Source: an uncultured bacterium
Lineage (GTDB): Bacteria; Hydrothermota; UBA3072
Assembly (NCBI GenBank): GCA_964556365.1
Contig: CAZKVT010000001.1
Location: 71,158 to 135,157 of the forward strand
DNA length: 64,000 bases
Reading direction: 5' to 3'
Part shown: in pieces, positions 45,843-63,334 of the stretch
How positions within the stretch are numbered: the first letter of the stretch is position 1
Layout of the letters: each line of letters begins with the position of its first letter
Position numbers and translations under genes: made by a program
The notes under the pieces: model-generated
Told to the model about the DNA's origin: nothing
What the model saw: only the letters and a program-made list of their open reading frames with translations
Databases searched by the model: none

Positions 45843-46607
45843 ATGCGGATAAAAATACAATTCTCACCAGCAAACAATATTTTCAGAATTCCCGTGAATT
45901 ATAACTATCTTGTTCAATCATTCATCTATAACAACATTTCAGCCAAACTATCGGATTTTCTGCATAATAAAGGATACATAGATGGAAAAAGGTCGTTTAA
46001 AATGTTCACTTTCTCAAGGCTTCAGGGAAAATGCAATTACAATAACGAAAGCAAAAGTCTGATCTTTAAAGATAATTTTGAGCTTTGGGTTTCCTCTCCC
46101 GAAAGCGAATTTCTTGAATCGTATGCCACAGAATTACTTAAAAATCCGGAAATAAGACTTGGTAAAAACCAAATATATATAAACTCCATCGAAGTGAGTA
46201 TGACCCCTGCTTTCAAGGAGGAAATACTGATAAAGATGATTTCACCGGTCACTGTTTACAGAACCTTAGAAGACAGAGAAGGAAATAAAAAGACCTACTA
46301 TTTTCATCCCAGGGAATCGGAATTTCCAAAATTAGTAAGCGAAAACATCAAAAGAAAGTACAGGGCTTTATACAAGAACGAACCACCGGACGTTGAACTT
46401 AAAATTATTCCAGAAAAATTGAGTAAAAGGAGTGAGCAAATTATTTTTTATAAAGATAAATATGTAATCAAAGGATGGCTTGGGGTATATAAAATTAAAA
46501 GTCATCCGGAAATGCTAAAACTTGCCTGGGACGCGGGCATCGGCTCCAAAAACCCCCAAGGGTTTGGAATGTTTGAGATAGTGGGGGAGAAAAAAGAAAA
46601 ACTATGA
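45843..46607 (+). CDS. cas6: CRISPR endoribonuclease Cas6
   Basis: 254 aa with the C-terminal glycine-rich loop GIGSKNPQGFGMFEIV. First gene of the cas operon. Confidence 0.85.
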   Translation: MRIKIQFSPANNIFRIPVNYNYLVQSFIYNNISAKLSDFLHNKGYIDGKRSFKMFTFSRLQGKCNYNNESKSLIFKDNFELWVSSPESEFLESYATELLKNPEIRLGKNQIYINSIEVSMTPAFKEEILIKMISPVTVYRTLEDREGNKKTYYFHPRESEFPKLVSENIKRKYRALYKNEPPDVELKIIPEKLSKRSEQIIFYKDKYVIKGWLGVYKIKSHPEMLKLAWDAGIGSKNPQGFGMFEIVGEKKEKL

Positions 46608-48069: not shown

Positions 48070-49104
48070 ATGCGCAAAACCATAAATGGATTTATGTTAG
48101 TTGATGCACCATGGTCAGCATTAAACAATGCTGGTATGGATGCAGGCGAAAGAACAGATAATGCAGTGAAGGTCAAAACTGTAAGAAAAGGCAGGGATGT
48201 TTATCCCTATGTTTCTGGTCAGGCAGTAAGATACTGGTGGAGAGAAACACTTGCAAATAAATTTGGATGGAATTTGTCCCCAATAGAAAGAGCGGCAAAA
48301 GTTGCCTACACTGCTGCTAATCCTATTGACTACGACGATGATGATATGTTTGGGTATATGAGGGCTGCAAAAGAAGAAGTTGAAGAAAAGGGGAAAAAGA
48401 AAAAAGTAAATGTTACTGTAACCCGTATTTCCCCGCTAAAAAATTCTCCTTTGTTTTCACTATATCCACAGAATCCAACTAATGACTTTGGGGTAATGGC
48501 AAGACAAACTGAGGGAGCCCCTGTTCCTTACGAACACCAATTTTATTCAACAATTTTTAAAGGAATATTCTCTGTAGATATTGAATGTGCGTGTAAACTC
48601 TATGAAATTGAAAAAACTGGATATAAGAATATGTCTCCAAAACTCATTAATAAGGCAAAAGAAATGGGATTAGAGTATAATGAGGAAGAAAAATTCTGGA
48701 GATTACCTGTTAATATCCGAAGGAAAAGGATAAAAGAGACAATTCTTGTTCTACCATATCTTTCTGGTGGTGCGAAACTCACTGAGCATTTGACAGATGT
48801 TTCACCTAAATTCCTGATTCTGGCAGTGATTGAAGGTGGAAATCATATTTTTATGAATATCGCTGATGAAAATGGAATAAACTTTGATGCTCTAAACAAA
48901 GTAATAGAAGATTATAAAGAAATTATCCTTTCTGATATATTCATAAGCAAAAGAGAGGGATTTTTTGATGAAATGGATAAGGAACTATCTGCATTTGCGA
49001 AAAAGAAATGGGAATATAATGGAAAGAACATTGAAGTAAAAACAAACTCAATAAATAATACGGTGTTAGAATTTACAAAAATTCTGGATGAGTTTATTGT
49101 ATGA
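48070..49104 (+). CDS. cas7: Type I-B Cas7 (Cst2/DevR family)
   Basis: NAGMDAGERTDNAVKVKTVRKG..YPYVSGQAVRYWWRE is typical of Cst2/DevR. Confidence 0.85.
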   Translation: MRKTINGFMLVDAPWSALNNAGMDAGERTDNAVKVKTVRKGRDVYPYVSGQAVRYWWRETLANKFGWNLSPIERAAKVAYTAANPIDYDDDDMFGYMRAAKEEVEEKGKKKKVNVTVTRISPLKNSPLFSLYPQNPTNDFGVMARQTEGAPVPYEHQFYSTIFKGIFSVDIECACKLYEIEKTGYKNMSPKLINKAKEMGLEYNEEEKFWRLPVNIRRKRIKETILVLPYLSGGAKLTEHLTDVSPKFLILAVIEGGNHIFMNIADENGINFDALNKVIEDYKEIILSDIFISKREGFFDEMDKELSAFAKKKWEYNGKNIEVKTNSINNTVLEFTKILDEFIV

Positions 49105-49116
49105 AGGAAGTATAAA

Positions 49117-49749
49117 ATGGCATCTTTTTTTAGAGTAAAAATTACCGGGTGGACGGCATCGTTTAGATACCCCATTTTTATTTATGGCTATCAACCTACT
49201 TTACCTGTGCCTCCTTACTCCACGATTTATGGTTTAATTTCAGCAGCAGTAGGAAAATGGGTAACCCCGGATGATATTGATGTAAAATATGTTTTCAAAA
49301 GTACCGCAAAGGGAATAAATCTTGAAAAAATCTATGAATGGGAAATTGGCAAAATCAGCAAATCAAATGTGATAAAACGAGAATTTCTCCTTAATCCAGA
49401 ATTATATTTATATGTTAATCAGAAAGAAATAGCTGATTGTTTTAAGAAACCGTTCTATCCTTTACTACTTGGCAGAAGCACAGAACTCGCCTTTGTTGAA
49501 GAGATAAAAAAAGTCAATCTGATTCAAAAAGAGAATTGCAAGGTTGGAGGTATAATTCTTCCTTTTCCACCAATACGTCCGCTTAACGGAACAATTCAGG
49601 CATTACCGACCCACTTTTCCAAAACTTTCCCACGTGAACCCATTGGAACCCGACCATGGTTCCTTGTAAAAGACTTTCAGAATTATGAAGGAAAAGGCTG
49701 GGTTGATGAAGAAAAGGGATGGGGAGTGATAATTGAGAAGGAGAAATGA
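49117..49749 (+). CDS. cas5: Type I-B Cas5 (Cas5t)
   Basis: FRVKITGWTASFRYP...PTLPVPPYSTIYGLISAAVG...LLLGRS. Confidence 0.85.
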   Translation: MASFFRVKITGWTASFRYPIFIYGYQPTLPVPPYSTIYGLISAAVGKWVTPDDIDVKYVFKSTAKGINLEKIYEWEIGKISKSNVIKREFLLNPELYLYVNQKEIADCFKKPFYPLLLGRSTELAFVEEIKKVNLIQKENCKVGGIILPFPPIRPLNGTIQALPTHFSKTFPREPIGTRPWFLVKDFQNYEGKGWVDEEKGWGVIIEKEK

Positions 49750-49791: not shown

Positions 49792-50853
49792 ATGATAAGA
49801 AAGACCATATCTAAAAAAACCACTTATCAGGGTTTGATTGATAGGATTGCTGAAATTCTTAAGCAGGCAAGGACTAAAGTGCTAAAAGAAATAAACAGAA
49901 CACAAGTTTTGGCATACTGGGAGATCGGCCGTGAAATTGTGGAATTTGAGCAGAAAGGTAAGGCACGAGCAGCATATGGAAAGGGATTATTAAAAAAACT
50001 TTCGGCAGACATGACTGCCAAATTTGGAAAAGGATTTTCACGTTCTAATCTTCAAAATATGCGACTTTTTTACCTTGCTTACCAAAAATGCCAGACGGTG
50101 TCTGGCAAATCTCAATTTGAACCCATATTATCCTGGTCTCACTATTGCGAATTGTTGAAGACAGAAGAACCCCTTGCCCGCTCTTTTTATGAGAAAGAGG
50201 CATCTCAGAATAACTGGTCTGTAAGAGAATTGAAAAGGCAAATTAACTCTATGCTTTTTGAACGATTGGCTTTGAGCAAGGACACCAGAACCGTAATGCG
50301 GATGGCAAAGAAGGGGCAAATTATAGAGAAACCAGAAGATGCTATTAAAGACCCTTATATTCTGGAATTTCTTAATCTTAAAGAAGAAACCTCCTATACT
50401 GAAAGTGATTTGGAACAGGCAGTAATAGATAAACTGGAGTATTTCCTTCTGGAGATTGGTAAGGGTTTTAGTTTTGTTGCCCGTCAGAAAAGGATTACCA
50501 TTGCTAACAGACATTATTATATTGACCTTGTCTTTTATAATCGTATTCTGAAATGTTTTATGTTAATAGACCTGAAGACTGGCGAACTTGACCATTCTGA
50601 CATTGGACAGATGAACTTTTATCTGAATTACTTCAAGGAAAATGAAAAAAGAGAAGAAGAAAACGACCCTATTGGTCTTATTCTTTGTGCTAAAAGAGAC
50701 GATATATTTGCAAAATATGTTTTAGGAGGATTGAACAACAAAGTTTTTGCCTCTAAATATAAATTAGCATTGCCCTCGGAGCAGGAAATAAAACGGAAAC
50801 TAAAATCAATCCCTTTATCATTAGATATGAAACATAAAAAGGGGAAAGGCTGA
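49792..50853 (+). CDS. DUF1016/YhcG-family PD-(D/E)xK nuclease
   Basis: YhcG-like N-terminus (VLAYWEIGREIVEFEQ...YG..LLK.LS..L), SWSHY, and a C-terminal nuclease core YIDLVFYN...LIDLKTGEL. Confidence 0.75.
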   Translation: MIRKTISKKTTYQGLIDRIAEILKQARTKVLKEINRTQVLAYWEIGREIVEFEQKGKARAAYGKGLLKKLSADMTAKFGKGFSRSNLQNMRLFYLAYQKCQTVSGKSQFEPILSWSHYCELLKTEEPLARSFYEKEASQNNWSVRELKRQINSMLFERLALSKDTRTVMRMAKKGQIIEKPEDAIKDPYILEFLNLKEETSYTESDLEQAVIDKLEYFLLEIGKGFSFVARQKRITIANRHYYIDLVFYNRILKCFMLIDLKTGELDHSDIGQMNFYLNYFKENEKREEENDPIGLILCAKRDDIFAKYVLGGLNNKVFASKYKLALPSEQEIKRKLKSIPLSLDMKHKKGKG

Positions 50854-50856
50854 ATA

Positions 50857-50902
50857 GATGAAGAAAAAGGTTGGGGAGTGATAATTGAGGAGGAGAAATG
50901 AG
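50857..50902 (+). repeat. 46-bp direct repeat, copy B (relic cas5 tail fused by ATGA to the cas10-like start)
   Basis: GATGAAGAAAAAGGTTGGGGAGTGATAATTGAGGAGGAGAAATGAG. Would encode DEEKGWGVIIEEEK* versus cas5 DEEKGWGVIIEKEK*. Confidence 0.9.
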
Positions 50903-52910
50903 CGATAAAAATAAATTTGTTCCAGAATTGCATGATATTGGGAAGCTTGTAGATAGACAAGCTCTCAATCAGGCAGGTATTCAAATTACTGGTCATACCT
51001 TTCACGATTTTGACTTTTCACAAATTGGCGTTTCACAACCATTCTCTCCAAGTTGGTACGCTCAATATTTGGAAAAAGACGAGTTAAGACCACCTGACAA
51101 AGACTTGTTGAACTCTCAAGAAGCAAAAGAATACATTCCCGACCCACAAATCCGTGCTGATGTTTTAATCACAAAAATGGCAGACGGTATATCAGCGGCA
51201 ATATCTCGACTTGAGTTGTATGGAAAGCGTATTCATAGAGGTCAAGTTAGTGAAGGTGTCCACAAACTTTGGAATGCTAAATTCTACGAGGAGAAAAAAC
51301 AAGGAGGGCAGTATTGGTCACCTTTTACTGATACTGAAAGTTTCAAGGGGATGTTCCAGTACATTGATTCATGTTTAAGTTATCAAGACTTTTTCAGAAA
51401 ATACGGGGAATATCTCAGCCTCACTCCAGAGGATAAAACCGCCCCCGGTAATATCGTAAGTCTTTATACCCATTTGGAACTTGTTGGTAAAATCTATCGC
51501 ACTTTAAAGAAACATTCACTACTTCAATTACAAAATGCACAAAACATTCTTCTTTACAACAATCAACCAATAAAAAGTGTCCAAGAAGCTTCTGGACACA
51601 TCGACCCTAAAGAAGATCAAGGTAAGTGGATATTTCGGATAGTAAATTGTAACATTGGATTTCCCCAATCTTTCTCTCGCCTCCAAGATCTTAACGTCTT
51701 TAGAAAAAGGGCTGATTTGATTAAAGCCTTTTCAGAAGATGAAAACACGAAAGATTATGTTTTATTCTTTACAGATGATTTAATTTGTCTGTTTATCCCG
51801 AAAGATGGCGAAGTTAGAATCCAAGAGTTATTAGACTCGTTTCTTGAAGCAAGATTTATAATTGACTACAAAGAAATGGAGGCAGAGTTGAATCTCCTAA
51901 CCTCTTCTATGAAAAAAGCTTACGAAAAGTTTCACTCTTTATCAACAACCAGACATCTAAAACTTTATGAAAAAAGAGCAAACTTTGATTTTTCTCCAGA
52001 AATTCGTCCACATCTTTGTGATTCTTGTCAGATGAAACACGGTAAAGAAAGGGTTAAAGATCAGATTTATGAGTATTTATGTGATACTTGCTACGATATT
52101 CGCGAAATGGGTGACCCTGCTCGTGAATATGCTAAATGGGAAGAAAAAGGATTAAGAGCAGGATGGATGAAAATCACACTTGACCAAGAGCAGTTGTTAA
52201 GGACACTTTATAGACTGTATGAAGAATATGTCGATACTCATTCAGCAATGCAAAGTATAAGCAATAGTGATAAAACAGTGTTAAAAGATTCATTTAGACC
52301 TCTTGCTGTTCAGATGGATTTTGTAAAGGATTACAAGTTGCTATTAAAGGCTTTCAATGACCAGATATACGAAATAAAAGATAAAGAAGGAAATCCATTT
52401 TTCATCGAAGAAAATTTTCTTTATCCAATTGAAGGATATTATGAATTTGGTATATTCAAGGTTTATTCAGGTGAGGATATTTTGAAAGTCCTTGACTTAT
52501 TCTATAATCTCTTGAAGGAGTATTTCCCTGAATGCTTGAAAGATTCTCCTATCAAATTGTCAATAAGTCTTGCTCAGGTGAAATATCCTTATCAAGAGCA
52601 TTGGCGATTTTTGTCAATGCCGAAAAATGTTATTAACATACAAAGCCTTGGAAATTCAAAACTTAGTATAGATATCTCTCAATACAAATTGCTCAGAGAG
52701 AAAATTAGAAGAGAAGACACCAAATTGAGCCACTTTTTACATCGTTTGGCTGATATTGAAATTGAGACAAAAAGCGATATGACTGTGATGCTTGAAATAT
52801 TTAACAACCGAAAGAGATTTCCGGTTTTATTGGAATTGACTCAAAGTGAGTTATCAGTTAATCAAATACTTGACTTTTACAAATTAACTCGTGAGGTGGC
52901 TATTCCATGA
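50898..52910 (+). CDS. cas10: Cas10-like large subunit (HD domain; degenerate cyclase motif SGED)
   Basis: HD motifs ELHDIGK / GHTFHD / KMADGIS. Csm1-like NIVSLYTHLELV. Palm1-like VLFFTDDLICLF. CxxC-x17-CxxC (C374-C398). Palm2-like WMKITLDQ ... VYSGEDIL ... KLSISLAQVKYP. Confidence 0.7.
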   Translation: MSDKNKFVPELHDIGKLVDRQALNQAGIQITGHTFHDFDFSQIGVSQPFSPSWYAQYLEKDELRPPDKDLLNSQEAKEYIPDPQIRADVLITKMADGISAAISRLELYGKRIHRGQVSEGVHKLWNAKFYEEKKQGGQYWSPFTDTESFKGMFQYIDSCLSYQDFFRKYGEYLSLTPEDKTAPGNIVSLYTHLELVGKIYRTLKKHSLLQLQNAQNILLYNNQPIKSVQEASGHIDPKEDQGKWIFRIVNCNIGFPQSFSRLQDLNVFRKRADLIKAFSEDENTKDYVLFFTDDLICLFIPKDGEVRIQELLDSFLEARFIIDYKEMEAELNLLTSSMKKAYEKFHSLSTTRHLKLYEKRANFDFSPEIRPHLCDSCQMKHGKERVKDQIYEYLCDTCYDIREMGDPAREYAKWEEKGLRAGWMKITLDQEQLLRTLYRLYEEYVDTHSAMQSISNSDKTVLKDSFRPLAVQMDFVKDYKLLLKAFNDQIYEIKDKEGNPFFIEENFLYPIEGYYEFGIFKVYSGEDILKVLDLFYNLLKEYFPECLKDSPIKLSISLAQVKYPYQEHWRFLSMPKNVINIQSLGNSKLSIDISQYKLLREKIRREDTKLSHFLHRLADIEIETKSDMTVMLEIFNNRKRFPVLLELTQSELSVNQILDFYKLTREVAIP

Positions 52911-53563
52911 ACGAATCAAATAAGACCTTCCTTCATTTTGAAGTGAATACAGAAGCCATAGCAATTGGAGAGAGGATTAAAGGGGGAACTTACCGACCTT
53001 GCATAGAAACCATACCAACTTCAACTTTAAAAGGCTCTTTTAGAGATTATTTTGGCTTGACAGATACTCTAGCAATTGGTTTTTTTAGAGAAGGGACATA
53101 CGAGAAAGACACTTTTACTTATGCTCCCTTTGACACCTTCTTAGGAACTGCTAAACTCCCTATTTCTCTGGAGTACCTCAAACCAGCAAATGGCACAAAA
53201 GCAGTTATAGCAGATATTTATGCAGTGAAAATGGGAACAACAGAGTTTCTTACCAAAGCTGCTCCAACAGAAATTTCTCTTGGTGCTTTAAAGAGCAAAG
53301 GATTTGGCAGATGTGAATTAAGATACATCGGGGAAGTCAAACCTTATTTGAAAATTGGATACCTAAAAGGACGTTTTATTGAAGAAGAATGTGCCGCTTT
53401 TGGAATCGCTAAAGTTATTAAGCCATGTTATGGCTATCTATTTTACCCAACATCAGAGGTGAGTGGCGTGTATAAGAGAGCATTATTTGAAGGAAGCATA
53501 ATTGAAGGACCTGAAATCTTGATCAAGGAGGAATATAAATATGATTACAAAAACATTGGATGA
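52907..53563 (+). CDS. Small RAMP protein, Cas5-family-like (Csm4/Cmr3/Csx10 position)
   Basis: IPTSTLKGSFRDYFG N-terminal RAMP motif and glycine loop GALKSKGFGRCEL. ATGA overlap with the cas10-like gene. Confidence 0.55.
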   Translation: MNESNKTFLHFEVNTEAIAIGERIKGGTYRPCIETIPTSTLKGSFRDYFGLTDTLAIGFFREGTYEKDTFTYAPFDTFLGTAKLPISLEYLKPANGTKAVIADIYAVKMGTTEFLTKAAPTEISLGALKSKGFGRCELRYIGEVKPYLKIGYLKGRFIEEECAAFGIAKVIKPCYGYLFYPTSEVSGVYKRALFEGSIIEGPEILIKEEYKYDYKNIG

Positions 53564-54134
53564 TGTGATGAGGCGGATGATGAACGACTCTTATATATTT
53601 AGCCCACCGTATGATAGAAATGCAAAATCTGCTATACCTTTACTATTTGAAACGGAGGAGTGGAAACAACTTAAAGAAGCCTTCGAGGGAAAAGATAAAA
53701 ACTCTTTTAACTCCATTGTGGATAATCAATGCCAAAAACTTCAACAAAAAGAGCAAAATGCAAACCAGTGGAGAAAGAGAAGGATAAGAGATACAATTAA
53801 ATTAGGAAAAGCATTGAAAAACGCTTATGATCAAAAGCCTTACATTTTAGAACAGATGTTTGATAAACTCGATTCATTTGGAATTATTGAGTGCAAATTG
53901 CCCAACACGGAGGATTATGGTAAGGTCATTGAAAATCACAATCGCTCAACAGTGGAACAGTACTTCCTTTCTAAAATAGATAGAGCAAGAGGTTATCAGA
54001 AACCTGCACTTCGAAAAACATTAGAATATGTAAAGGAATTATACGCGATGAAGCTTGATGTACTTGAGATAGCATTCTTTATTAGGAAACTAAATTCTTT
54101 AACCCAGTTTATGGAGGTGATAAAAGATGAATAG
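53541..54134 (+). CDS. Putative Cas11-like small subunit (helical, by position)
   Basis: 197 aa, charged and helix-prone, SD AAGGAGG. Sits between the two RAMP genes as Csm2/Cmr5 do. I could not recognise a diagnostic motif. Confidence 0.35.
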   Translation: MITKTLDDVMRRMMNDSYIFSPPYDRNAKSAIPLLFETEEWKQLKEAFEGKDKNSFNSIVDNQCQKLQQKEQNANQWRKRRIRDTIKLGKALKNAYDQKPYILEQMFDKLDSFGIIECKLPNTEDYGKVIENHNRSTVEQYFLSKIDRARGYQKPALRKTLEYVKELYAMKLDVLEIAFFIRKLNSLTQFMEVIKDE

Positions 54135-54975
54135 CATTGGAAAAATGGATAAATTGCCAGAAAGCAAGCAACATGGGATAGTGACGGTGCTTCAGGTTCC
54201 ACTGAAGATAACCGTTCAGGAAGGCTCGTTCCTACACATCGGAGGTAGTTCTTCGCCACTTACAGAGAAGAAGGCCCCCGTCTTTTCTGTAGATGGAAAG
54301 CCAGCGATACCTGCATCCAGCTTTAAGGGGGCATTCAGATATCAAGTAGAGCAACTGCTAATCGCTAAAAAAGACGAGCTCAAATTAAAACTTGGGACAA
54401 CAGATGATAAGCTAATTAGACCGTGTATCCCCACACCAAGACCTTCAAGAGCCGAACAAGAATTACTGAACTTAGGATACAGGAAACACTGTGCGATAAA
54501 AGTCGAGGAAGATAAAGTTGAGATACCCAAGGAGAATAATAAACTTATTGGACTTTGCCCTGTTTGCTATCTCTTTGGTGCCACAGGTTTAATGGGGTTC
54601 CTTCGCATACCCAACTTTTGGCCTGAGACGGGAGAATACAGAATAAACCAGACAAGTATTAGGATAGATCGTGAAAGCGGAACAGCAGCTACGGGGGCAA
54701 TTGTTACGGGTGAACAGGTGAAGCCAGGAACAGTGTTTAAAGGAATATTAGAAATTATTTCTCAACAAAGAAATTTCCAATTTGGCAAAGCGAGAGAGAT
54801 CGGAGAAACAAAAGTTGACCTTTGGTTGGATGGCATTGCTTTAAAACCGATAGAAGAAGCACAACTCTTATTGATTAATGAGATCCTAATTCCTGCTCTG
54901 AATAACATAACCGTTCTCGGAGGTCAAAAGAGTAAAGGTGCGGGTAAGGTAAAAATTGAAATAGAAAATTCGTAA
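54127..54975 (+). CDS. Cas7-family RAMP (Csm3/Cmr4-like), the only backbone subunit of the cassette
   Basis: FLHIGGSSSP, KPAIPASSFKGAFRYQVEQLL, CPVCYLFGATGLMGF, C-terminal glycine loop LGGQKSKGAGKVKIE. Confidence 0.7.
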   Translation: MNSIGKMDKLPESKQHGIVTVLQVPLKITVQEGSFLHIGGSSSPLTEKKAPVFSVDGKPAIPASSFKGAFRYQVEQLLIAKKDELKLKLGTTDDKLIRPCIPTPRPSRAEQELLNLGYRKHCAIKVEEDKVEIPKENNKLIGLCPVCYLFGATGLMGFLRIPNFWPETGEYRINQTSIRIDRESGTAATGAIVTGEQVKPGTVFKGILEIISQQRNFQFGKAREIGETKVDLWLDGIALKPIEEAQLLLINEILIPALNNITVLGGQKSKGAGKVKIEIENS

Positions 54976-54982
54976 GATTTCT

Positions 54983-57196
54983 ATGTTTTTTGCCAAACCT
55001 GACGAATCCTTAAGCGACCATACAGAGAATACATTAAAAGTGTTTTCTTCCTTGAAAGAAGGTTATCAAGAAATTCCGGAATTATGTAATGTTCCTCAAT
55101 TCTGGAATAATTTATTTTATGCGATTTTCTTACACGATTTTGGAAAGATAGCAAGTGGCTTTCAAGAAGAACTAAAAACTGGTAAAAGATGGAATTATAG
55201 ACACGAAATTTTATCTGCAGGTTTTGTATCCGCTCTTGATGTGCCGGAGAAAGATAAAAACGCAATAGCTCTTGCTATTATAACACACCATAAGGATATA
55301 AAGGAACTAAGAGAAAAATATGCTACATATCCAAAAGAAAACCCCGGTTATCAAAGATTTCAAGAAAAACTAAAGGAACTAAACTTAAACGAATCAAACA
55401 ACCTTATTGATAATATAAAGAATTTTAGCTCAAAATATCTTGGAACGAAATTAACAAACTATCATTTCATTAATACTTATGAAGAATTGACAGATGTCTA
55501 CAGCAAATATGTATTACCTTATTATAGAGCATACAAATCAGAAGAATTGACGCCTCTTCACAGAAACTACGGCATTTTTATGAAAGGATTTCTTACCGCC
55601 GCCGACCATCTTGCTTCCGCGGGAGAATACGAAATAAAAAAAACAGTTAAGGAAATCAAAGATTATATAAAATTCAAACAGTTAAATACTGTTCAAAAGC
55701 AAGCAAGTAAATATAAAGGAGATATGTTTATTGTTTCTCCCACAGGAAGTGGAAAAACCGAAGCGGCATTGTTCTGGGCGCATAATAATCAGAACCCAGT
55801 TAGCTCCAAAAGGATCTTCTATATACTGCCTTATACCGCAAGTATCAACTATATGTATAAAAGATTTATTAAGCTTTTTGGAAACGACGAACTTGTCGCG
55901 GTTTTACATGGTAAATCTTCTTATTTTCTTTACAGGTTTTTCACAGAAGAAAGAGGATATATTAACTACAAAGATGCTAAAATAAGGGTAAAGGAATACC
56001 AGAGCTTAGCGAAAAAGATTTATAAACCATATAAAGTTATGACTCCCTTTCAAATTATAAAAGCTTTTTTTAGCCTTAAAGGATTTGAACGAAACATTTC
56101 CGAAATGGCAGGGGGTTTATTTATCTTTGATGAGATTCATTCCTACGATCCACATACTACAGCTCTTATTCTTCAGATTGCGAAATTCATAAAAGAAGAG
56201 TTAAACGGAAAACTGTTGTTTATGACAGCTACTATGCCTGAGTTCTTAAAGAATAATTTTCAGAAAGAACTTCAAATTTCTCAGGAAATAAGGATGAAGG
56301 AATCAGAGCTAAGGAACTTTACTCGACATAAGGTTAAGATTATTGAAGGCAATATTATAGATAATATTACGCTTATCAAAAATGATATTAAAAAAGGTAA
56401 GAAAGTACTTATTGTTATAAATACAGTAAAACAAGCACAGGATATTTTTCGAAATTTAATCGGTTCAACACCAAACTCCGTCCTCCTTCATAGCCGATTC
56501 ACTCTTAAAGATAGGGAAATAACAGAATCATCACTCAATAACAAAAACCTTCTTGTTGGAACTCAGGTAATTGAAGTTTCTCTAGATATAGATTATGATG
56601 TACTATATTCGGAACCTGCTCCTATTGATGCTTTACTACAGCGATTTGGAAGAGTTAACAGACGAGGGAAAAAGGGTATCTCACCTATTTATATTTTTTC
56701 GGAGGGAAGCGGAGTCGACGAAAGCAAATGGTCAATTTATGATTTAGCAAGAACGAAAAGGAGTATAGCTGCTTTAAAAAAGATCGATGTGCTTCAAGAA
56801 TCAAAAATCCAAGAAATTGTTAATGGAGTTTATAAAGAAGGATATTCGGAAAAAGAATTAAAACTCTTTAAAGATACTTCTGAAAACTTTTATAAATTCT
56901 ACCACAGTAATGTACCCTTCATAGATGCACAGAAAAAGGAAAGTGATTTTTATAATCTTTTCAAATCAGTAGAAGTAATTCCTGTTAAATTTTGGGACCA
57001 ATATAAAACCGAGTTAGAGAACAAAAGGTACTTCGAAGCTATGAAATACACTCTACCAATATCTCTTGGGCAATATGCTTATCTGAAAAATAAAGACAGG
57101 GTAAGTAATACAGATAGAGGAACAATCGTTGATGCCGAATATGACAGTAAATTTGGTTTACTCATAAGCGAACAAACATCTGCAACTTTTGTATGA
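54983..57196 (+). CDS. cas3: Cas3 HD nuclease-helicase fusion
   Basis: N-terminal HD (SDHTENT, FLHDFGK, RHEILS, ITHHKD). SF2 helicase motifs SPTGSGKTEAALFWA, FDEIHSYD, MTATMP. Confidence 0.9.
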   Translation: MFFAKPDESLSDHTENTLKVFSSLKEGYQEIPELCNVPQFWNNLFYAIFLHDFGKIASGFQEELKTGKRWNYRHEILSAGFVSALDVPEKDKNAIALAIITHHKDIKELREKYATYPKENPGYQRFQEKLKELNLNESNNLIDNIKNFSSKYLGTKLTNYHFINTYEELTDVYSKYVLPYYRAYKSEELTPLHRNYGIFMKGFLTAADHLASAGEYEIKKTVKEIKDYIKFKQLNTVQKQASKYKGDMFIVSPTGSGKTEAALFWAHNNQNPVSSKRIFYILPYTASINYMYKRFIKLFGNDELVAVLHGKSSYFLYRFFTEERGYINYKDAKIRVKEYQSLAKKIYKPYKVMTPFQIIKAFFSLKGFERNISEMAGGLFIFDEIHSYDPHTTALILQIAKFIKEELNGKLLFMTATMPEFLKNNFQKELQISQEIRMKESELRNFTRHKVKIIEGNIIDNITLIKNDIKKGKKVLIVINTVKQAQDIFRNLIGSTPNSVLLHSRFTLKDREITESSLNNKNLLVGTQVIEVSLDIDYDVLYSEPAPIDALLQRFGRVNRRGKKGISPIYIFSEGSGVDESKWSIYDLARTKRSIAALKKIDVLQESKIQEIVNGVYKEGYSEKELKLFKDTSENFYKFYHSNVPFIDAQKKESDFYNLFKSVEVIPVKFWDQYKTELENKRYFEAMKYTLPISLGQYAYLKNKDRVSNTDRGTIVDAEYDSKFGLLISEQTSATFV

Positions 57197-57247: not shown

Positions 57248-57760
57248 ATGCATCAGAATAATTCAATAAATTTTATCACTCCTTCCCTCATAAACGCCTA
57301 TTGTATATGTAAACGTAAAGCGTGGTTTCAGAGCAGAAGTATAAATCCGCAACAGGATTATTCAAATGTCTCCATAGGAAGGACTATTGATGAAACTTCT
57401 TATAAGAGACAGAAAAAGTCTATCACAATCGATAATATGAAAATCGATTTAATCGAGGAATCGGAAGGAAATCCAATGATATGTGAAATCAAAAAATCAT
57501 CCGCCGGGAAAAAGGCAGCAATAATGCAGATTGCCTACTACCTTTACAGATTGAAAGAAATGGGCATTGATGCGAAAGGAAGACTGCTTTTGCCAAAAGA
57601 AAGAAAAAGAGAGACCGTGGAACTCAACGCGGAATTAGAAGAAGAAATAAAAAAATTGGTGAAGGAAACTAAAGAACTGATTTCACTCGACAAGCCCCCA
57701 GAATTAAAAAAGACAAAATTTTGTAGAAAATGCGCGTATTTTGAATTCTGTTTTACTTAG
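57248..57760 (+). CDS. cas4: Cas4 RecB-like nuclease
   Basis: N-terminal Cys (YCICKRKAWF) plus C-terminal CRKCAYFEFC cluster. EIKKS nuclease motif. Confidence 0.85.
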   Translation: MHQNNSINFITPSLINAYCICKRKAWFQSRSINPQQDYSNVSIGRTIDETSYKRQKKSITIDNMKIDLIEESEGNPMICEIKKSSAGKKAAIMQIAYYLYRLKEMGIDAKGRLLLPKERKRETVELNAELEEEIKKLVKETKELISLDKPPELKKTKFCRKCAYFEFCFT

Positions 57761-57768
57761 GAGGTGAT

Positions 57769-58761
57769 ATGAGAAGTTTATACGTAACATCAAACGGAAC
57801 ATTGCATAGAAGACAGAATACTCTGTATTTTGAAACGGAAGATGGTAAAAGGAAATATGTTCCTGTAGAGAATACACAAGAAATACTTATATTCGGAGAA
57901 GTTTCAATCAATAAAAAACTTATTGATTTTATTTCACAACAAGGGATTTTACTACATTTTTTTAATTATTATGGGTACTATTCGGGAACGTTTTATCCCA
58001 GAGAACATAATAATTCCGGTTGTACTATATTAATGCAAGCTACCTTTTATCAGGATAATGAAAAAAGACTTGAACTCGCAAGAAAATTTGTTGAAGGAGC
58101 AATTGAAAGTATTCTTAAAGTGCTTGGATATTACAATAACAGAGGCTCTGACCTTAAACAAAGAATTGAAAATATTGAAAGGATAAAGGAAAATATTTGC
58201 AAAGTTAACAATATCCAGGAACTCATGGGAAATGAAGGCAATTGTCGAGATATTTATTATGGGGCATTCGACGCAATACTGAACAATGAAGATTTTTCCT
58301 TTGATAGGCGTTCAAGACAACCGCCAAAGAATAGACTCAATGCCTTAATAAGTTTCGGAAATTCTCTGATTTATATCGTGACTTTAAGCGAGATTTACAA
58401 AACTCATCTTGACCCAAGAATCGGATTTTTACATTCTACTAATTTCAGGAATTTTAGTCTGAACCTCGACCTTGCTGAAATATTTAAACCTATCATAACA
58501 GACAGAATAATATTTACATTGATAAATAAGAAAATGATAAATAAAAATGATTTTGATTCAAAGATGAAAGGAACTTACCTTAGTGAAAAAGGAAGGGAAA
58601 CATATCTCAGGGAATTTGACAATAGGATGGAACAGACCATAAAGCATCCCAATTTAAAACGTAATGTCTCATACCGAAGATTAATACGTCTTGAAGCATA
58701 TAAAATTGAAAAACACCTTCTTGGTGATAAGAAGTATAGCCCGTGGGTAGCAAGATGGTGA
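57769..58761 (+). CDS. cas1: Cas1 integrase
   Basis: 330 aa, LYVTSNGTLHRRQNTLYF..., NALISFGNSLIY, DPRIGFLH. Confidence 0.9.
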   Translation: MRSLYVTSNGTLHRRQNTLYFETEDGKRKYVPVENTQEILIFGEVSINKKLIDFISQQGILLHFFNYYGYYSGTFYPREHNNSGCTILMQATFYQDNEKRLELARKFVEGAIESILKVLGYYNNRGSDLKQRIENIERIKENICKVNNIQELMGNEGNCRDIYYGAFDAILNNEDFSFDRRSRQPPKNRLNALISFGNSLIYIVTLSEIYKTHLDPRIGFLHSTNFRNFSLNLDLAEIFKPIITDRIIFTLINKKMINKNDFDSKMKGTYLSEKGRETYLREFDNRMEQTIKHPNLKRNVSYRRLIRLEAYKIEKHLLGDKKYSPWVARW

Positions 58762-58768
58762 CGAAACC

Positions 58769-59032
58769 ATGTATGTAATTCTCGTTTATGATATAGAAGA
58801 AAAAAGGGTGGCAAAAGTACTAAAAACTTGCCGAAAATATCTCAACTGGATACAGAATTCTGTATTTGAAGGAGAAATAACAAAAGCCCGATTGGAGAAG
58901 TTAAAGGCTGCTTTGAAAGAAATTATAAATAAAGAAAAAGATTCGGTTGTTTTTTATAAAATGAGAACCACCAAATATTTTAAGAAAGAAATAATGGGTA
59001 AAGAGAAAAGTGAAATATCTTCATTTATTTAA
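58769..59032 (+). CDS. cas2: Cas2
   Basis: 87 aa, MYVILVYDI...RVAKVLKTCRKYLNWIQNSVFEGEIT. Confidence 0.9.
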   Translation: MYVILVYDIEEKRVAKVLKTCRKYLNWIQNSVFEGEITKARLEKLKAALKEIINKEKDSVVFYKMRTTKYFKKEIMGKEKSEISSFI

Positions 59033-59102
59033 TTCGTCGACCTATAGTAACGCAAAAACATCAGGGTACCGACGAACATACAAAATTCCACCAAATTCAC
59101 TA

Positions 59103-59131
59103 TTGACAAAAGGTCTCAAGAAATCTACAAT
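59103..59131 (+). promoter_or_regulatory. Leader promoter of the CRISPR array
   Basis: TTGACA (59103-59108), 17 nt, TACAAT (59126-59131), about 65 nt upstream of repeat 1 within the 163-nt AT-rich leader (59033-59195). Confidence 0.55.
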
Positions 59132-59195
59132 ATTACTATGTATAGCTATATGAAAAGACGAAAATTTAAACCCTTGAAACAGCTATACTCGACGA

Positions 59196-62100
59196 CTTCC
59201 AATCCTACCTATGAGGAATTGAAATGTGTCAATCCTTTTACCCCTAAATTTTATTTCTCGCACTTCCAATCCTACCTATGAGGAATTGAAATTAATTAAA
59301 GAAGCGATACACTCCACAAAGAAATCAATCTTCCAATCCTACCTATGAGGAATTGAAATAGCTGTACCTCAGACAAATTCTCCATCACCTCATTCTTCCA
59401 ATCCTACCTATGAGGAATTGAAATCCTGTTAATAGTTCTCGGAGATACGCCGAGTCTCTTCTTCCAATCCTACCTATGAGGAATTGAAATTTGTTTTATG
59501 ACACCGATTACAATAGAAATATCTCAAGCTTCCAATCCTACCTATGAGGAATTGAAATAGTTAATCACCTCCTTTGGGTGTTTTGAAAGTTTCGCTTCCA
59601 ATCCTACCTATGAGGAATTGAAATTATTCCAAAGTCTTATATCCAGCAAGAGAAGTTTTGACTTCCAATCCTACCTATGAGGAATTGAAATTGTAATTCC
59701 CCTCAGATTCCCTCGGTTGACATCTTCTTCCAATCCTACCTATGAGGAATTGAAATCCAACTCATCGTTGCGAAAACAATATTCTGGGGTACTTCCAATC
59801 CTACCTATGAGGAATTGAAATTTGAATTCGACATTTGCAACTCTATATTTATTGTACTTCCAATCCTACCTATGAGGAATTGAAATACGAATATGATGGC
59901 GAAATAGAATTATGCCAAAGCGCTTCCAATCCTACCTATGAGGAATTGAAATGCAGCTTTTGCTGCCTTAGTTTTGTTGACCCTTTTCTTCCAATCCTAC
60001 CTATGAGGAATTGAAATGCTCCTTAATCTTCCTTCTGAGTTTGTTTATCTGTTCTTCCAATCCTACCTATGAGGAATTGAAATAGTTCAAAACCTCCTAT
60101 TCCGGAAAACATTGAAAACTTCCAATCCTACCTATGAGGAATTGAAATTTGTGTATCACTTACGCCTTTCGTCCATCCATCAGGAACTTCCAATCCTACC
60201 TATGAGGAATTGAAATGCCATTCTCAAGCCTTACTTCTTTTCGACTTCTTATCTTCCAATCCTACCTATGAGGAATTGAAATATAAGATAGGCTTAGCAC
60301 CCTTGCCTCGATTATCCACCTTCCAATCCTACCTATGAGGAATTGAAATTTAATTCTCTTATTTGTTCCAAGCATAAATAAGCCGCCTTCCAATCCTACC
60401 TATGAGGAATTGAAATATTTAATAAGAAAACTAAAATCTATCCGGGAACTTTCTTCCAATCCTACCTATGAGGAATTGAAATAGTAAATTGTATCTCCTG
60501 AGTTTTTAGAATGAGTCCGCTTCCAATCCTACCTATGAGGAATTGAAATCAATATTAAGAAGAAGGCTGACGCTAAGGCATTCTGACTTCCAATCCTACC
60601 TATGAGGAATTGAAATGTGATATTCTGATGCAAGATAATCGGAAGCTTTACCCTTCCAATCCTACCTATGAGGAATTGAAATGTTCTTATCCTTTTCCGG
60701 CAAGTCCTTACAGACACCTTCCAATCCTACCTATGAGGAATTGAAATTTCTCGTTAAATTGACTAACCTATCTGCGAACTTTACTTCCAATCCTACCTAT
60801 GAGGAATTGAAATCAGAACTATTGCAGCGAATGCGGAGGATACTTCTACCTTCCAATCCTACCTATGAGGAATTGAAATTTCGATGAGGAAGGATAAAAA
60901 GGAAAAAAGATGATACTTCCAATCCTACCTATGAGGAATTGAAATTTTCAAACGAATAAGCGTCATCAGAACTTATCCATCTTCCAATCCTACCTATGAG
61001 GAATTGAAATCATTATTTGAAGGAAGCATAATTGAAGGACCTGAAACTTCCAATCCTACCTATGAGGAATTGAAATTTCTTAATGTTTGTTGCAAGACAG
61101 TGAAAAGGTTGACTTCCAATCCTACCTATGAGGAATTGAAATTTCGATGAGGAAGGCAATCAATGAACGCTAAACTCCCTTCCAATCCTACCTATGAGGA
61201 ATTGAAATTTATAACCTTAGCATGACCATCTTTTTCCAACATCTCTTCCAATCCTACCTATGAGGAATTGAAATATAGATCCAGAGACACCACAACGAAA
61301 ACAATGAAAACTTCCAATCCTACCTATGAGGAATTGAAATTTTTTATTTTCTATTAGAAAAAAAATAAATTTACCCCTTCCAATCCTACCTATGAGGAAT
61401 TGAAATCACCATTAACAAGTAAAGACCCGCATACAGGTATACTTCCAATCCTACCTATGAGGAATTGAAATTTGCTATAAGCAACGCTAAGACTGGTAAC
61501 AATGGCAGACTTCCAATCCTACCTATGAGGAATTGAAATATAGAATTTCCAAGCGAACCATAACATCAAAATATACTTCCAATCCTACCTATGAGGAATT
61601 GAAATATATCTGATATTGGGAATTAATTTATGCAAAGAATTCTTCCAATCCTACCTATGAGGAATTGAAATTTCAATATTGTCTATTAATGTTTCTTGAT
61701 TGTAATGCTTCCAATCCTACCTATGAGGAATTGAAATCTGGTTCCACCGCCTGTATGATAACTTAATTTAGTTGCTTCCAATCCTACCTATGAGGAATTG
61801 AAATATCAAACTACTGTTTATAAGCCATGCCAATATTGTAACTTCCAATCCTACCTATGAGGAATTGAAATTGAATAGAAGCCCACTCGTTGAGGACATA
61901 AATTTTCTTCCAATCCTACCTATGAGGAATTGAAATGCTTTTTTATCTCGCTCATCAAGGGTAAAAGTTCGTACTTCCAATCCTACCTATGAGGAATTGA
62001 AATCCTGGAATTTCTCTATTCTATTGTTCATTCCTTCTCCCTTCCAATCCTACCTATGAGGAATTGAAATTCGAATAAGTTCTATGCTACACCGGATTAT

Positions 62101-63334
62101 TGTTTTCTTCCAATCCTACCTATGAGGAATTGAAATTCGGTATGGTTATTGGACATCAGAAAGGCAATTCGTCTTCCAATCCTACCTATGAGGAATTGAA
62201 ATTTAGAAGGGAGAACTATCCAGGCTTTCAAATACATTCTTCCAATCCTACCTATGAGGAATTGAAATCTGTCTTCTTGTAGGTTATCCTGTATTGTTTT
62301 CCTTCTTCCAATCCTACCTATGAGGAATTGAAATCTTTATGCACGAGGTCGGAAGGGTTAATCTCTCTGTCACTTCCAATCCTACCTATGAGGAATTGAA
62401 ATTGTGCATAATGCCTTATACCAGAATCCTTCTCCCTTTCTTCCAATCCTACCTATGAGGAATTGAAATACACAAAAACCTCTCCTCACCGTTTACGATT
62501 ATTTTCTTCTTCCAATCCTACCTATGAGGAATTGAAATAAATCTTTTGGTATAGAACAAGTTAGAAATGGATTACTTCCAATCCTACCTATGAGGAATTG
62601 AAATGTAAATAATTCGTAAGAACAACAACTGGCTTAAGGGCTTCCAATCCTACCTATGAGGAATTGAAATCCATTTTTGCTTATCTTCTTCACTGTTTTT
62701 AGGGTCTACTTCCAATCCTACCTATGAGGAATTGAAATATAATTACATGGGAGAAAAGGGGGATATGTTATCAATACTTCCAATCCTACCTATGAGGAAT
62801 TGAAATGAATATAAGGCTCATCTGTCGATTCCTGTTCTTGTGCTTCCAATCCTACCTATGAGGAATTGAAATAGCTTTTAGCTCTTCGTTTGGGATTTAG
62901 ATACGCGCCTCTTCCAATCCTACCTATGAGGAATTGAAATCCCGGAACCTGCCGGTAAATGAAAATCATTAAGCAACTTCCAATCCTACCTATGAGGAAT
63001 TGAAATATGAAACAAATATATAGCCCAGACGCGGAGAGAGCGCTTCCAATCCTACCTATGAGGAATTGAAATATTATATGGTAGCTTCCTTATGGCAAAA
63101 ATTGGTTCTTCCAATCCTACCTATGAGGAATTGAAATCCGGGGATTTAAACGAGGGTAAGAAGTGTAATCTGCTTCCAATCCTACCTATGAGGAATTGAA
63201 ATATGGCTTGTGGATTGGTGGTGAACTGTGAATAGATGCTTCCAATCCTACCTATGAGGAATTGAAATCCTGCCTGGAAGGTCAAGAGACTTATAGCGGA
63301 ACTCCTTCCAATCCTACCTATGAGGAGTCGACTT
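59196..63334 (+). CRISPR. CRISPR array: 63 x 30-nt repeats (CTTCCAATCCTACCTATGAGGAATTGAAAT), 62 spacers of about 35-39 nt
   Basis: Counted by hand; mean period about 66 nt. The repeat 3' end ATTGAAAT equals a canonical 8-nt crRNA 5' tag. The last repeat (63305-63334) is degenerate in its final 8 nt. Leader and cas2 lie at the 5' side. Confidence 0.97.

Follow-up and report, generated by a model that had tools for sequence, protein, structure and literature searches.

A self-matching CRISPR spacer in a type I-B locus with a nested III-F module: most likely a tolerated acquisition from a site lacking a PAM

Introduction

Self-matching spacers are carried by a sizeable share of genomes with CRISPR. 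The locus described here lies in the window, that is, the whole 64,000-nucleotide stretch of DNA that was analysed, and it raises the question of how a type I-B system with intact interference genes can carry, in the middle of its array, a spacer identical to a gene of its own cas operon. The features of the locus are listed in Table 1.

Table 1. Coordinates of the cas genes, the CRISPR array and the self-matching sites in the window
Feature	Position	Strand	Evidence and remarks
cas6	45843-46607	+	NCBIfam match, nearly whole model
cas8b1/cst1	46719-48068	+	NCBIfam domain, residues 102-398 of 449; PADLOC Cas8b 5e-61
cas7/cst2	48070-49104	+	NCBIfam match, nearly whole model
cas5b	49117-49749	+	NCBIfam match, nearly whole model
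YhcG/DUF1016 PD-(D/E)xK nuclease gene	49792-50853	+	Pfam YhcG_C 5e-57, DUF1016_N 9e-48; PADLOC PDC-S02 5.6e-144
cas10 of III-F (cas10f, 670 aa)	50898-52910	+	PADLOC Cas10a|Cas10f E=1.8e-117; model labelled CAS-III-A, not III-F-specific
cas5 of III-F (cas5f, target gene, 218 aa)	52907-53563	+	PADLOC Cas5_IIIf E=3.3e-57, residues 8-213 against model positions 2-194 of 195
PAM position of the protospacer	53478-53480	+	GAG; differs from YYA at 3/3 positions
Protospacer within cas5f	53481-53516	+	Encodes ALFEGSIIEGPE, the C-terminal motif most conserved in the family
cas11 of III-F (cas11f, 197 aa)	53541-54134	+	PADLOC Cas11f E=7.8e-45; start codon 25 nt downstream of the protospacer
cas7 of III-F (cas7f, 282 aa, Csm3/Csx7-like RAMP)	54127-54975	+	PADLOC Cas7_IIIf 6.1e-81; Pfam RAMPs 3e-18
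cas3 (HD nuclease and helicase, 737 aa)	54983-57196	+	PADLOC Cas3b E=8.6e-223, residues 3-734 against model positions 5-702 of 705
cas4	57248-57760	+	Pfam Cas_Cas4 2.8e-55
cas1	57769-58761	+	Pfam Cas_Cas1 1.3e-99
cas2	58769-59032	+	Pfam CRISPR_Cas2 7.2e-27
Leader	59033-59195	+	Sigma-70-like promoter TTGACA-17-TACAAT at 59103-59131, 11/12 consensus matches
CRISPR array	59196-63334	+	63 repeats, 62 spacers; degenerate terminal repeat 63305-63334
Spacer 28, self-matching	61011-61046	+	Exact 36/36 match; number 28 among 62

The self match

In the window, CATTATTTGAAGGAAGCATAATTGAAGGACCTGAAA (36 nt) has exactly two copies, both on the plus strand and with 0 mismatches, one being spacer 28 of the array and the other lying within cas5f; none of 100 shuffles that preserved dinucleotides gave a match. 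The identity ends at the spacer ends, where the preceding base is T in the repeat and G on the chromosome, and the following base is C in the repeat and T on the chromosome. The chromosomal copy is preceded on its 5′ side by ...tgtataagagag and followed on its 3′ side by tcttgatcaagg. The initial annotation had described the 36/36 identity to a cas5-like gene, its exact limits and the flanks AAGAGAG and TCTTGA, and all of these were recovered as stated. Spacer 28 is thus a self-targeting spacer in the usual sense, belonging to a bona fide array and matching, over its full length, non-repeat sequence elsewhere on the same molecule. The first base of the protospacer is the second of the Ala192 codon, and the site lies 5.7 kb upstream of the array on the same strand. 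In an alignment of 30 sequences, residues I198, G201 and P202 of the encoded motif are invariant and A192 and L193 are conserved in at least 90%.

The match is a solitary one. The other spacers of the window gave no match to the window outside the array with up to 8 mismatches allowed, and 0 of 435 other spacers associated with the same repeat matched it. An array variant with four new spacers (L065) has no second self-matching spacer among them. Priming around the protospacer was rejected, as no second self match was found among the 436 spacers or among these new ones.

Linkage of the array and the target gene

CRISPR arrays are often mis-assembled and the data are metagenomic, so the co-occurrence might be an artefact joining the array of one strain to the cas locus of another. 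A second, separately assembled contig of 91 kb (JGI 3300031379 Ga0307434_1000067), which begins inside cas6, carries the array and the protospacer together; its cas operon, its protospacer and the full 62-spacer array are identical to those of the window. The identical protospacer was also found beside the same cas genes on contigs from more samples (L002–L006, L065). On two of these contigs (L002, L065) the sequence runs on from the protospacer through cas2 and the leader into the first repeats, and pieces of the array from further contigs (L035, L037, L047) overlap consistently. Mis-assembly is judged very unlikely because the second contig and the further samples present the same arrangement, and the probability left to an artefact is close to negligible. 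A wrong joining of different strains or contigs, named in the initial annotation as the finding that would overturn the self match, is not borne out.

Structure, orientation and age of the array

The array adjoins cas1–cas2 and is built of a 30-nt repeat, CTTCCAATCCTACCTATGAGGAATTGAAAT, of which 62 of the 63 copies are identical, and of spacers 35–39 nt long. Spacer 28 is present in the array variants L001/L064, L035 and L037, the last two coming from two further samples. L037 carries spacers 19–54 and L035 carries spacers 19–47 minus spacer 26, while the spacers on the cas2 side differ between both; the L065 array has its four new spacers on the cas2 side as well. This variation marks the cas2-side end as the one where spacers are added. 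Strain variation at the cas2 end, the promoter in the leader and the position of the PAM on the 5′ side all show that the array is read on the plus strand from the cas2-side leader, and crRNA 28 therefore has the same sense as the cas5f mRNA, as had been proposed for an array transcribed in this direction. The repeat folds weakly on both strands, and its folding does not decide the orientation. The predicted crRNA handle of the array is the 8-nt AUUGAAAU.

Judging by its distribution, spacer 28 is old and tolerated, because it is common to at least three array variants whose leader-end spacers, added later, differ; the earlier view that a mid-array spacer such as this one is not a recent acquisition holds. 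Adaptation in the population went on for at least 10 to 18 more spacers after the self-derived spacer had been fixed. In the strain represented by L065 the cas locus is the same, but spacer 28 is missing.

Derivation of the PAM

To derive the PAM, 30 phage protospacers were used, all belonging to arrays with the exact repeat of the window; a strict subset comprises the 20 distinct spacers with at most two mismatches. The derived PAM is 5′-YYA, mostly TTA (12 of the 30, with CCA 4, TCA 2 and CTA 2; TTA makes up 10/20 in the strict subset). In the 20 spacers, position −3 is T in 13, C in 6, G in 1 and A in none, position −2 is T in 13, C in 6, A in 1 and G in none, and position −1 is A in 16/20. 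None of the 30 phage protospacers has an RRN flank. The PAM is on the 5′ side of the strand with the spacer sense, and no motif was found on the 3′ side. Among the 20 flanks in the strict subset, one or two are not YYN (CAT, GCA), and non-canonical uptake therefore occurs in this repeat family.

Most of these flanks belong to spacers of sibling arrays, which share the repeat and maybe come from other strains or species (in the sibling L038, Cas1 is 63% and Cas4 50% identical to that of the window), and only 3–4 come from the lineage of the window itself. Within that lineage, window spacer w3 has a CCA flank in two phage variants, and overlapping spacers gave CCA for window spacer w19 and CCG for n148; the flank of n110/n132, with 4–5 mismatches, is ACG.

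Viral contigs were scanned with spacer pairs merged into IUPAC patterns. A pattern built from the target shared by two overlapping sibling spacers led to phage contigs, and a search with N-terminal peptides of the phage major capsid protein added one more close contig (L053) and a distant relative (L054). One pattern from sibling-array targets (n214/n327, n63/n370) gave no match in the viral contigs, and neither did spacers 1, 2, 5, 6, 19, 20, 26, 30 and 35 of the window or its lineage, or n153. No real protospacer came from comparing the whole array with INPHARED phages and PLSDB plasmids; the single INPHARED phage match was spurious and the PLSDB plasmid matches were repeat-like arrays. Phages and a PAM are now identified for the sibling arrays.

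In a type I target competent for interference, the PAM occupies positions −3 to −1, directly 5′ of the protospacer on the strand identical to the crRNA; at the cas5f site these positions read GAG, drawn from the Arg191 codon AGA and the G of the Ala192 codon. Integration in the flipped orientation would not help, as the 3′ flank on the opposite strand is AGA, which is no PAM either. The homologous flank in 25 other cas5f genes is GAG in nine, AAG in three, GGG in three and YYA in none. It is purine-rich and not a PAM in 24 of the 25, because codons for Lys or Arg followed by Ala encode this site. In type I systems, the range of PAMs that allow interference can exceed the range used in acquisition, and several unrelated trinucleotides serve as PAM in some I-B systems. 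With all three positions of GAG deviating from the 5′-YYA carried by same-repeat protospacers, we infer that GAG is non-permissive for the I-B system of the window. The idea, put forward in the initial annotation, that the flank is a non-permissive PAM thereby gains direct support; of the PAM check proposed with it, the logo was obtained and GAG does not fit it, while the spacers used are mostly those of sibling arrays and permissiveness is read from the sequence. For work on the PAM of an uncultivated I-B system, spacer 28 offers a natural negative control.

The I-B operon and the nested III-F module

The I-B assignment follows from Cas8b1/Cst1, Cas7/Cst2, Cas5b, Cas6 and the core and HD parts of Cas3, all of which match above the NCBIfam cut-offs, together with Cas4–Cas1–Cas2. 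In Cas3, the HD motif (residues 51–52), Walker A GSGKT (255), DEIH (383) and TAT (415) are present. The I-B interference genes, described earlier as intact, are indeed so, being of full length with the catalytic motifs of Cas3 kept. In the first 45 kb of the window, the checked ORFs are housekeeping genes, none of which looks prophage-derived. FCB-group marker genes were noted in the window.

Between cas5b and cas3 of this operon sits the module cas10f–cas5f–cas11f–cas7f. The III-F-specific models Cas5_IIIf, Cas11f and Cas7_IIIf match across nearly the full length, while the match of Cas7f to NCBIfam Csx7 is under the model cut-off. Cas10f has an HD motif at residues 12–13 (in ELHDIGK) and two CxxC pairs; no GGDD/GGDE cyclase motif was found in its 670 residues, and no CARF or SAVED gene was found at the locus. 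The profile matches, the HD motif without GGDD and the lack of cOA-dependent ancillary effectors assign the module to subtype III-F. This subtype was reportedly defined in the 2020 evolutionary classification of CRISPR–Cas systems, and we know of no published biochemistry on it. A survey of type III systems describes III-F as having HD, no cyclase motifs and no effectors (PMC11229360). The module of the window has the same gene set, with a Cas10 bearing HD without GGDD and with no cas6, adaptation genes or ancillary effectors of its own; what differs is its place inside a I-B operon, after a YhcG-type nuclease gene. That gene, between cas5b and cas10f, has no counterpart beside the III-F module in any of 28 other genomes (0/28) and is, to judge from gene neighbourhoods, outside the conserved module.

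The target protein, Cas5f, matched nothing in Pfam or NCBIfam, and no solved structure with detectable sequence similarity to Cas5f or Cas10f was found. The AlphaFold model of Cas5f has a mean pLDDT of 85, and its top Foldseek matches are RAMP subunits from effector complexes of types I and III. The matched chains are of about 300 aa in the type III entries and about 200–220 aa in the type I entries, and we take them by size to be Csm4/Cmr3/Cas5. Both HMM and fold evidence agree with the earlier description of the target as a Cas5-type RAMP gene of a nested type III module, and the precise name for the type III-like cassette is III-F. Cas5f is 60–87% identical across Ignavibacteria, Thermodesulfovibrionales, Atribacteria, WOR-3 and archaea, and the III-F module has clearly been exchanged between distant lineages. 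Base composition is no clear mark of foreign origin, with a GC content of 0.33–0.41 in the cassette (highest over cas11f–cas7f) against 0.31–0.37 in the I-B genes. Recurrent targeting of III-F cassettes was also considered and rejected, since the spacers of 14 arrays beside other III-F modules match no cassette. The locus, an intact I-B operon hosting a III-F module with both sharing one array, is of more interest than the spacer.

Origin and tolerance of spacer 28

Spacer 28 is best explained, with a probability of about 0.7, as the leftover of a non-canonical acquisition from the cas operon itself or from a virtually identical copy, unusable by either effector of the locus and tolerated. It would have been taken up from a self or near-self site that has no PAM. 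Lacking this motif, the DNA would not be opened by the I-B Cascade (Cas8b1–Cas7–Cas5b), nor would Cas3 be recruited. The III-F complex, which would require complementary RNA, would meet none, because crRNA 28 is sense to the only expected transcript. Out of reach of the I-B system for want of a PAM and of the III-F complex for its sense crRNA, the spacer would therefore be neutral. Self spacers with a working PAM would kill their carriers, leaving as survivors those taken from non-PAM sites. Most likely, then, spacer 28 is a tolerated accident of a well-known kind and the case is one more tolerated self-matching spacer.

An unlikely alternative is that the protospacer can be targeted and I-B interference is switched off by an anti-CRISPR from a prophage elsewhere in the genome or by transcriptional repression of the effector genes, or is outlived through efficient repair from extra chromosome copies, with adaptation still running. 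Adaptation and interference can be uncoupled, genomes with self-targeting spacers often carry anti-CRISPRs (PMC7708048), Haloferax survives I-B self-targeting via repair (PMC7521656), and with 64 kb inspected an anti-CRISPR or repressor encoded elsewhere is conceivable. Such a device is unnecessary when GAG misses the PAM at every position, so the earlier suggestion of inhibited or repressed interference is possible but not required. With interference off and self DNA freely sampled, more self matches would be expected than the 1 of 436 spacers that matches the window outside the array; moreover, all I-B genes and the catalytic motifs of Cas3 are intact, and none of the ORFs checked in the first 45 kb is prophage-like. 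Given about the same small weight is an origin from a near-identical III-F cassette that came in on a plasmid, in a virus or in transforming DNA of a neighbouring strain, the resident gene being matched through extreme conservation. The exchange of the module between lineages and the position of the protospacer in the most conserved motif speak for it, and so does the cas5f of an Atribacteria MAG (L007), to which spacer 28 has three mismatches, with six to two others. Against it, 36/36 matches were found only in the resident gene and its population variants, those three mismatches being the nearest approach of any other cas5f gene found; no spacer of the 14 arrays beside other III-F cassettes matches any cassette, and a foreign source would be no more canonical: since the flank is not a PAM in 24/25 homologues, the acquisition was non-canonical whatever the source. 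Sampling of the cassette on its arrival with a mobile element, one of the initial readings, is thus neither needed nor well supported. This alternative concerns origin only and leaves the reason for tolerance unchanged.

That selection keeps spacer 28 as a regulator of the cas operon is highly improbable. In one version, Cascade or the III-F complex with crRNA 28 would bind the 3′ end of cas5f and tune cas11f–cas7f–cas3–cas4–cas1–cas2; in another, the III-F complex would sense antisense transcription of the cassette. The site does lie just upstream of the ribosome-binding site of cas11f, with all downstream cas genes co-oriented, and the spacer is retained in at least three array variants; this retention is common to the neighbouring spacers 19–47, so that no selection is needed, and the L065 strain dispenses with the spacer in the same cas locus. 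A sense crRNA cannot pair with the operon mRNA. As for an antisense promoter, a consensus scan gave one nearby weak site, the total count in the region being within about 2 SD of the shuffle mean and not clearly above chance. Autoregulators resembling crRNAs do exist in I-B cas operons, as outlined in a preprint (bioRxiv 10.1101/2023.03.10.532045), but unlike CreR spacer 28 is an ordinary member of a 62-spacer array and pairs over 36 nt with a coding region that offers no PAM, and the suggestion that it had been co-opted for regulation finds no support. Little credence is likewise given to spacer 28 being kept as a link between the two effectors sharing the array, through a III-F response triggered by antisense RNA or PAM-independent tuning near cas5f/cas11f. 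In the antisense version, the trigger could be, for example, an insertion or invasion within the cas locus. If true, the hybrid I-B/III-F locus would have a built-in guide for self-surveillance or autoregulation.

Comparison with known systems

A tolerated, PAM-less acquisition has precedents. Only 29.5% of I-B self-targeting spacers have the consensus PAM, cas genes are intact in 88% of genomes with such spacers and mid-array self-targeting spacers are known (PMC7708048). In Pectobacterium atrosepticum (type I-F), a natural self-targeting spacer is tolerated through a PAM mutation (Dy et al. 2013, as related in PMC6990116). As far as these accounts go, the I-F case and the roughly 70% of I-B cases share with spacer 28 an intact type I system with its cas genes, a non-consensus flank, a full or near-full chromosomal match, a position away from the leader end and later adaptation. 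The differences are that spacer 28 matches a cas gene belonging to a second system (III-F) in the same operon and not a prophage or housekeeping gene, and that the PAM was derived in this analysis, with non-permissiveness deduced from sequence.

Elements of the CreR type are a further parallel. CreR regulators pair partially with a promoter adjoining a functional PAM. Spacer 28 differs from a CreR/CreT-like mini-CRISPR in its mid-array position, its full pairing with a coding region and its lack of a PAM. According to the outline in the above preprint, CreR/CreTA-type elements are degenerate mini-CRISPRs repressing I-B, I-E and V-A cas operons; common to both is a crRNA-like element of a I-B locus with a match to that locus's own cas operon, whereas theirs are described there as stand-alone degenerate units and spacer 28 lies between two perfect repeats with full 36-nt identity.

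A parallel for the source of the spacer is Pyrococcus furiosus, in which new spacers are mostly self-derived and self DNA is heavily sampled, with protospacer hotspots around active CRISPR arrays (PMC5737086). Both cases involve an array-proximal source (here on the strand of the array, only 5.7 kb before the leader), Cas4–Cas1–Cas2 and one array shared by type I and type III effectors. The P. furiosus data come from deep-sequenced cultures and mostly show a CCN PAM, whereas a single fixed non-PAM event is recorded here in environmental genomes.

Spacer 28 and its target

Spacer 28 (36 nt) has exactly one other copy in the window; both copies lie on the forward strand with 0 mismatches, and the match is non-random, as it was found in 0 of 100 shuffles. 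Identity between the spacer and the chromosomal copy, which has ...TGTATAAGAGAG as its 5′ flank and TCTTGATC... as its 3′ flank, stops at both spacer boundaries. The self-match reported in the initial annotation (36/36, same strand, ending at the spacer edges) is real and was accurately described. The remaining spacers of the array have no match in the window outside the array with up to 8 mismatches allowed. The same protospacer and GAG flank are present in every population contig carrying cas5f.

Features of the CRISPR-cas locus (window positions)
Feature	Position	Strand	Remarks
cas6	45843-46607	+	
cas8b1/cst1, cas7/cst2, cas5b	after cas6, ending 49749	+	
YhcG/DUF1016 PD-(D/E)xK nuclease	49792-50853	+	first inserted gene; PADLOC candidate system PDC-S02
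III-F module, cas10f-cas5f-cas11f-cas7f	50898-54975	+	four genes, PADLOC profiles
cas5f	52907-53563	+	target gene, 218 aa
Protospacer of spacer 28	53481-53516	+	inside cas5f
cas3	54983-57196	+	HD, Walker A, DEIH and motif III residues present
cas4, cas1, cas2	after cas3, ending 59032	+	followed by leader and array
CRISPR array	59196-63334	+	63 copies of repeat CTTCCAATCCTACCTATGAGGAATTGAAAT, 62 spacers
Spacer 28	61011-61046	+	
Degenerate last repeat	63305-63334		

The operon reads, all on the forward strand, cas6, cas8b1/cst1, cas7/cst2, cas5b, five inserted genes, cas3, cas4, cas1, cas2, leader and array. None of the type I-B genes is truncated, and the catalytic motifs of Cas3 are present, so the interference genes are intact, as initially noted. 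Four of the inserted genes match PADLOC subtype III-F profiles across nearly their full length: Cas10f (670 aa; Cas10a/Cas10f model, 1.8e-117, labelled CAS-III-A by PADLOC), Cas5f (the 218-aa target; Cas5_IIIf, 3.3e-57), Cas11f (7.8e-45) and Cas7 (Cas7_IIIf, 6.1e-81). The AlphaFold model of Cas5f has a mean pLDDT of 85, and Foldseek matches it best to RAMP subunits from effector complexes of type III-D, Csm, Cmr and type I-C/I-D/I-E; the matching chains of ~300 aa (type III) and ~200–220 aa (type I) are, judging by size, presumably Csm4, Cmr3 and Cas5. No sequence-related entry was found in the PDB. On the basis of the profiles and the modelled fold, the gene correctly described at first as a Cas5-like RAMP gene of a type III-like cassette can be named as cas5 of subtype III-F. 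Cas10f contains an N-terminal HD motif (ELHDIGK) and lacks GGDD, in line with PMC11229360, where III-F is described as HD-positive and cyclase-negative.

The YhcG/DUF1016 gene between cas5b and cas10f was seen in this lineage only. In a population variant (L005, JGI 3300031575), a 13-bp deletion between short GAAAA repeats (window 51911-51923; L005 ~2075) frameshifts cas10f; thus, the III-F module is disrupted in some cells. The window also encodes the type IX secretion sortase PorU, a SusC/RagA-like protein and an OmpA-family protein (6499-10212, 18711-21077, 31042-32802); the SusC/RagA TonB-linked outer membrane protein match is weak, N-terminal and far under the family cut-off. Together they suggest a host from the Fibrobacteres-Chlorobi-Bacteroidetes group, possibly similar to Ignavibacteria, in spite of the Atribacteria affinity of the III-F homologues given below.

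Protospacer-adjacent motif

Public phage and plasmid records contained no protospacers for the window's array, and a scan of viral contigs with nine window spacers and one more of the same array lineage gave no match. A metagenome scan with the repeat yielded 15 loci with 374 further spacers. Mutual overlap among some spacers was used to read a few flanks directly; window spacer 19 is flanked by CCA, and n148, a spacer of the same array lineage, by CCG. A pattern from one doubly hit target led to two viral contigs of the same sample series. These carry genes for terminase, portal, protease and major head proteins and, combined with related phage contigs, supplied protospacers of 30 distinct spacers. 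Among the 20 protospacers with at most two mismatches, position -3 was T in 13, C in 6, G in 1 and A in 0, position -2 was T in 13, C in 6, A in 1 and G in 0, and position -1 was A in 16; half of them (10/20) had a TTA flank. No bias was seen at -5 or -4 or in the 3′ flank of the phage protospacers. Two phage variants match window spacer 3, with 6 mismatches in one and 7 in the other (a similarity well beyond chance), and the flank is CCA in both. This gives 5′-YYA as the PAM of the repeat family. One or two of the 20 well-matched protospacers have a non-YYN flank, so non-canonical uptake does happen at a low rate.

The flank of the self protospacer is wrong at all three positions, which supports one of its initial readings, that it is non-permissive. 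GAG is set by codons, namely AGA of Arg191 and the first base of GCA (Ala192). In 25 other cas5f genes, the corresponding triplet is GAG in 9, AAG in 3, GGG in 3 and mostly purine-rich in the rest, with YYA in 0/25. Given this codon-dictated flank, uptake of spacer 28 was non-canonical whatever the source DNA.

Many spacers in sibling arrays (L036, L038, L041, L043, L045, L048) target a family of HK97-type tailed phages (L050-L053, L055, L058, L062) that have terminase, portal, protease and capsid genes. The TTA flank is strict for L038 spacers (8/8); L045 spacers have looser flanks (CTA, CCT, CAT, CCA, TTG), and the adaptation module behind L045 may be a different one or less selective. Of 436 spacers (window 59196-63334 and L035-L049), 83% have A or T at position 6 and 5% have G there; at positions 3-4 G is frequent and C scarce, and at positions 1-2 pyrimidines are frequent. 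The pattern resembles a base preference within the protospacer.

Array orientation and turnover

Population variants of the array have a block of spacers in common but not the end next to cas2, where L037 carries 10 other spacers ahead of 19-54, L035 carries a single one ahead of 19-47 (26 is missing), and L065 carries 4 new ones. The leader contains a forward-strand promoter, TTGACA-17-TACAAT, and the PAM falls 5′ of the protospacer on the spacer-sense strand, the 3′ side being motif-free. These three independent observations place the leader at the cas2 side, with crRNA made from the forward strand; crRNA 28 therefore has the sense of the cas5f mRNA, as the initial annotation had proposed.

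Spacer 28 is common to at least three array variants, with 18, 10 and at least 1 different spacers gained later at the leader end. It thus predates their divergence and, as had been supposed, is not recent; the further leader-end spacers indicate that adaptation continued after it was fixed. L065 combines the same cas locus with a 5-spacer array lacking spacer 28, which is therefore not indispensable. Outside the array, the window is matched by none of the other 435 spacers with the same repeat; a cluster of secondary self-spacers from priming is thus absent.

Spacers 26 and 30 (60880-60915, 61143-61178) are the same over 14 nt from their start (TTCGATGAGGAAGG) and differ thereafter; apparently they represent one site in two related elements, where a gene end and a ribosome-binding site precede different downstream starts. 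L035 has lost spacer 26. The window array ends directly after spacer 62; other strains keep at least 55 older spacers beyond it (L040, L047, L065 and L042 compared; window 63269-63334). Such arrays and the 5-spacer array at the same cas locus indicate that large internal deletions are common in the population.

Tolerance of the self-matching spacer

The favoured explanation, with a probability of about 0.7, is non-canonical uptake of self or virtually identical DNA, tolerated since neither effector can use spacer 28. Its observed parts are the identity, target, polarity, family PAM, non-PAM flank and persistence. Cas8b would fail to license an R-loop at the GAG flank, leaving Cas3 unrecruited; the III-F complex would need a complementary transcript, which should be absent because crRNA 28 is sense. 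Spacer 28 would then be neutral baggage. Adaptation takes up self DNA as well, above all close to active arrays (PMC5737086). Such array-proximal sampling fits the position of the protospacer, which shares the strand of the array and is 5.7 kb upstream of the leader. Carriers of functional self-spacers die and those of non-PAM ones survive; most surviving I-B self-spacers lack a consensus PAM, with cas genes intact (PMC7708048; review PMC6990116), and spacer 28 follows this general survivorship pattern. It is a fresh example of a known phenomenon, and the data favour its most conservative reading.

On the evidence of the 64 kb of sequence, silencing or inhibition of I-B interference is unlikely: it is unnecessary and predicts more self-spacers than the one seen. 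Acquisition from a foreign, near-identical III-F cassette seems about equally doubtful; the module is apparently mobile and its closest other copy differs at 3/36 positions, but no 36/36 match was found outside this population, and such a source would alter only the origin of spacer 28. A regulatory role is highly improbable, since it would require PAM-independent binding or antisense RNA, the single nearby antisense promoter-like site is weak and every hallmark of known cas autoregulators is missing. Mis-assembly of array and cas locus can practically be discounted, as a second contig carries the whole arrangement and partial contigs overlap.

Spread of the III-F module

More interesting than spacer 28 is the nested III-F module, which seems to be mobile and tends to adjoin I-B loci. 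The four-gene module was found in 28 representative genomes of many bacterial and archaeal phyla, usually adjoining I-B-type cas genes or arrays in varying arrangements, which suggests a horizontally mobile effector module dependent on I-B loci. Its proteins are 60-87% identical across Ignavibacteria, Thermodesulfovibrionales, Atribacteria, WOR-3, Bathyarchaeia and Odinarchaeota (loci L007-L033); the cross-phylum identity of Cas5f alone, also 60-87%, points to recent horizontal transfer. In the representative-genome scan, the nearest III-F homologues of the window were from Atribacteria.
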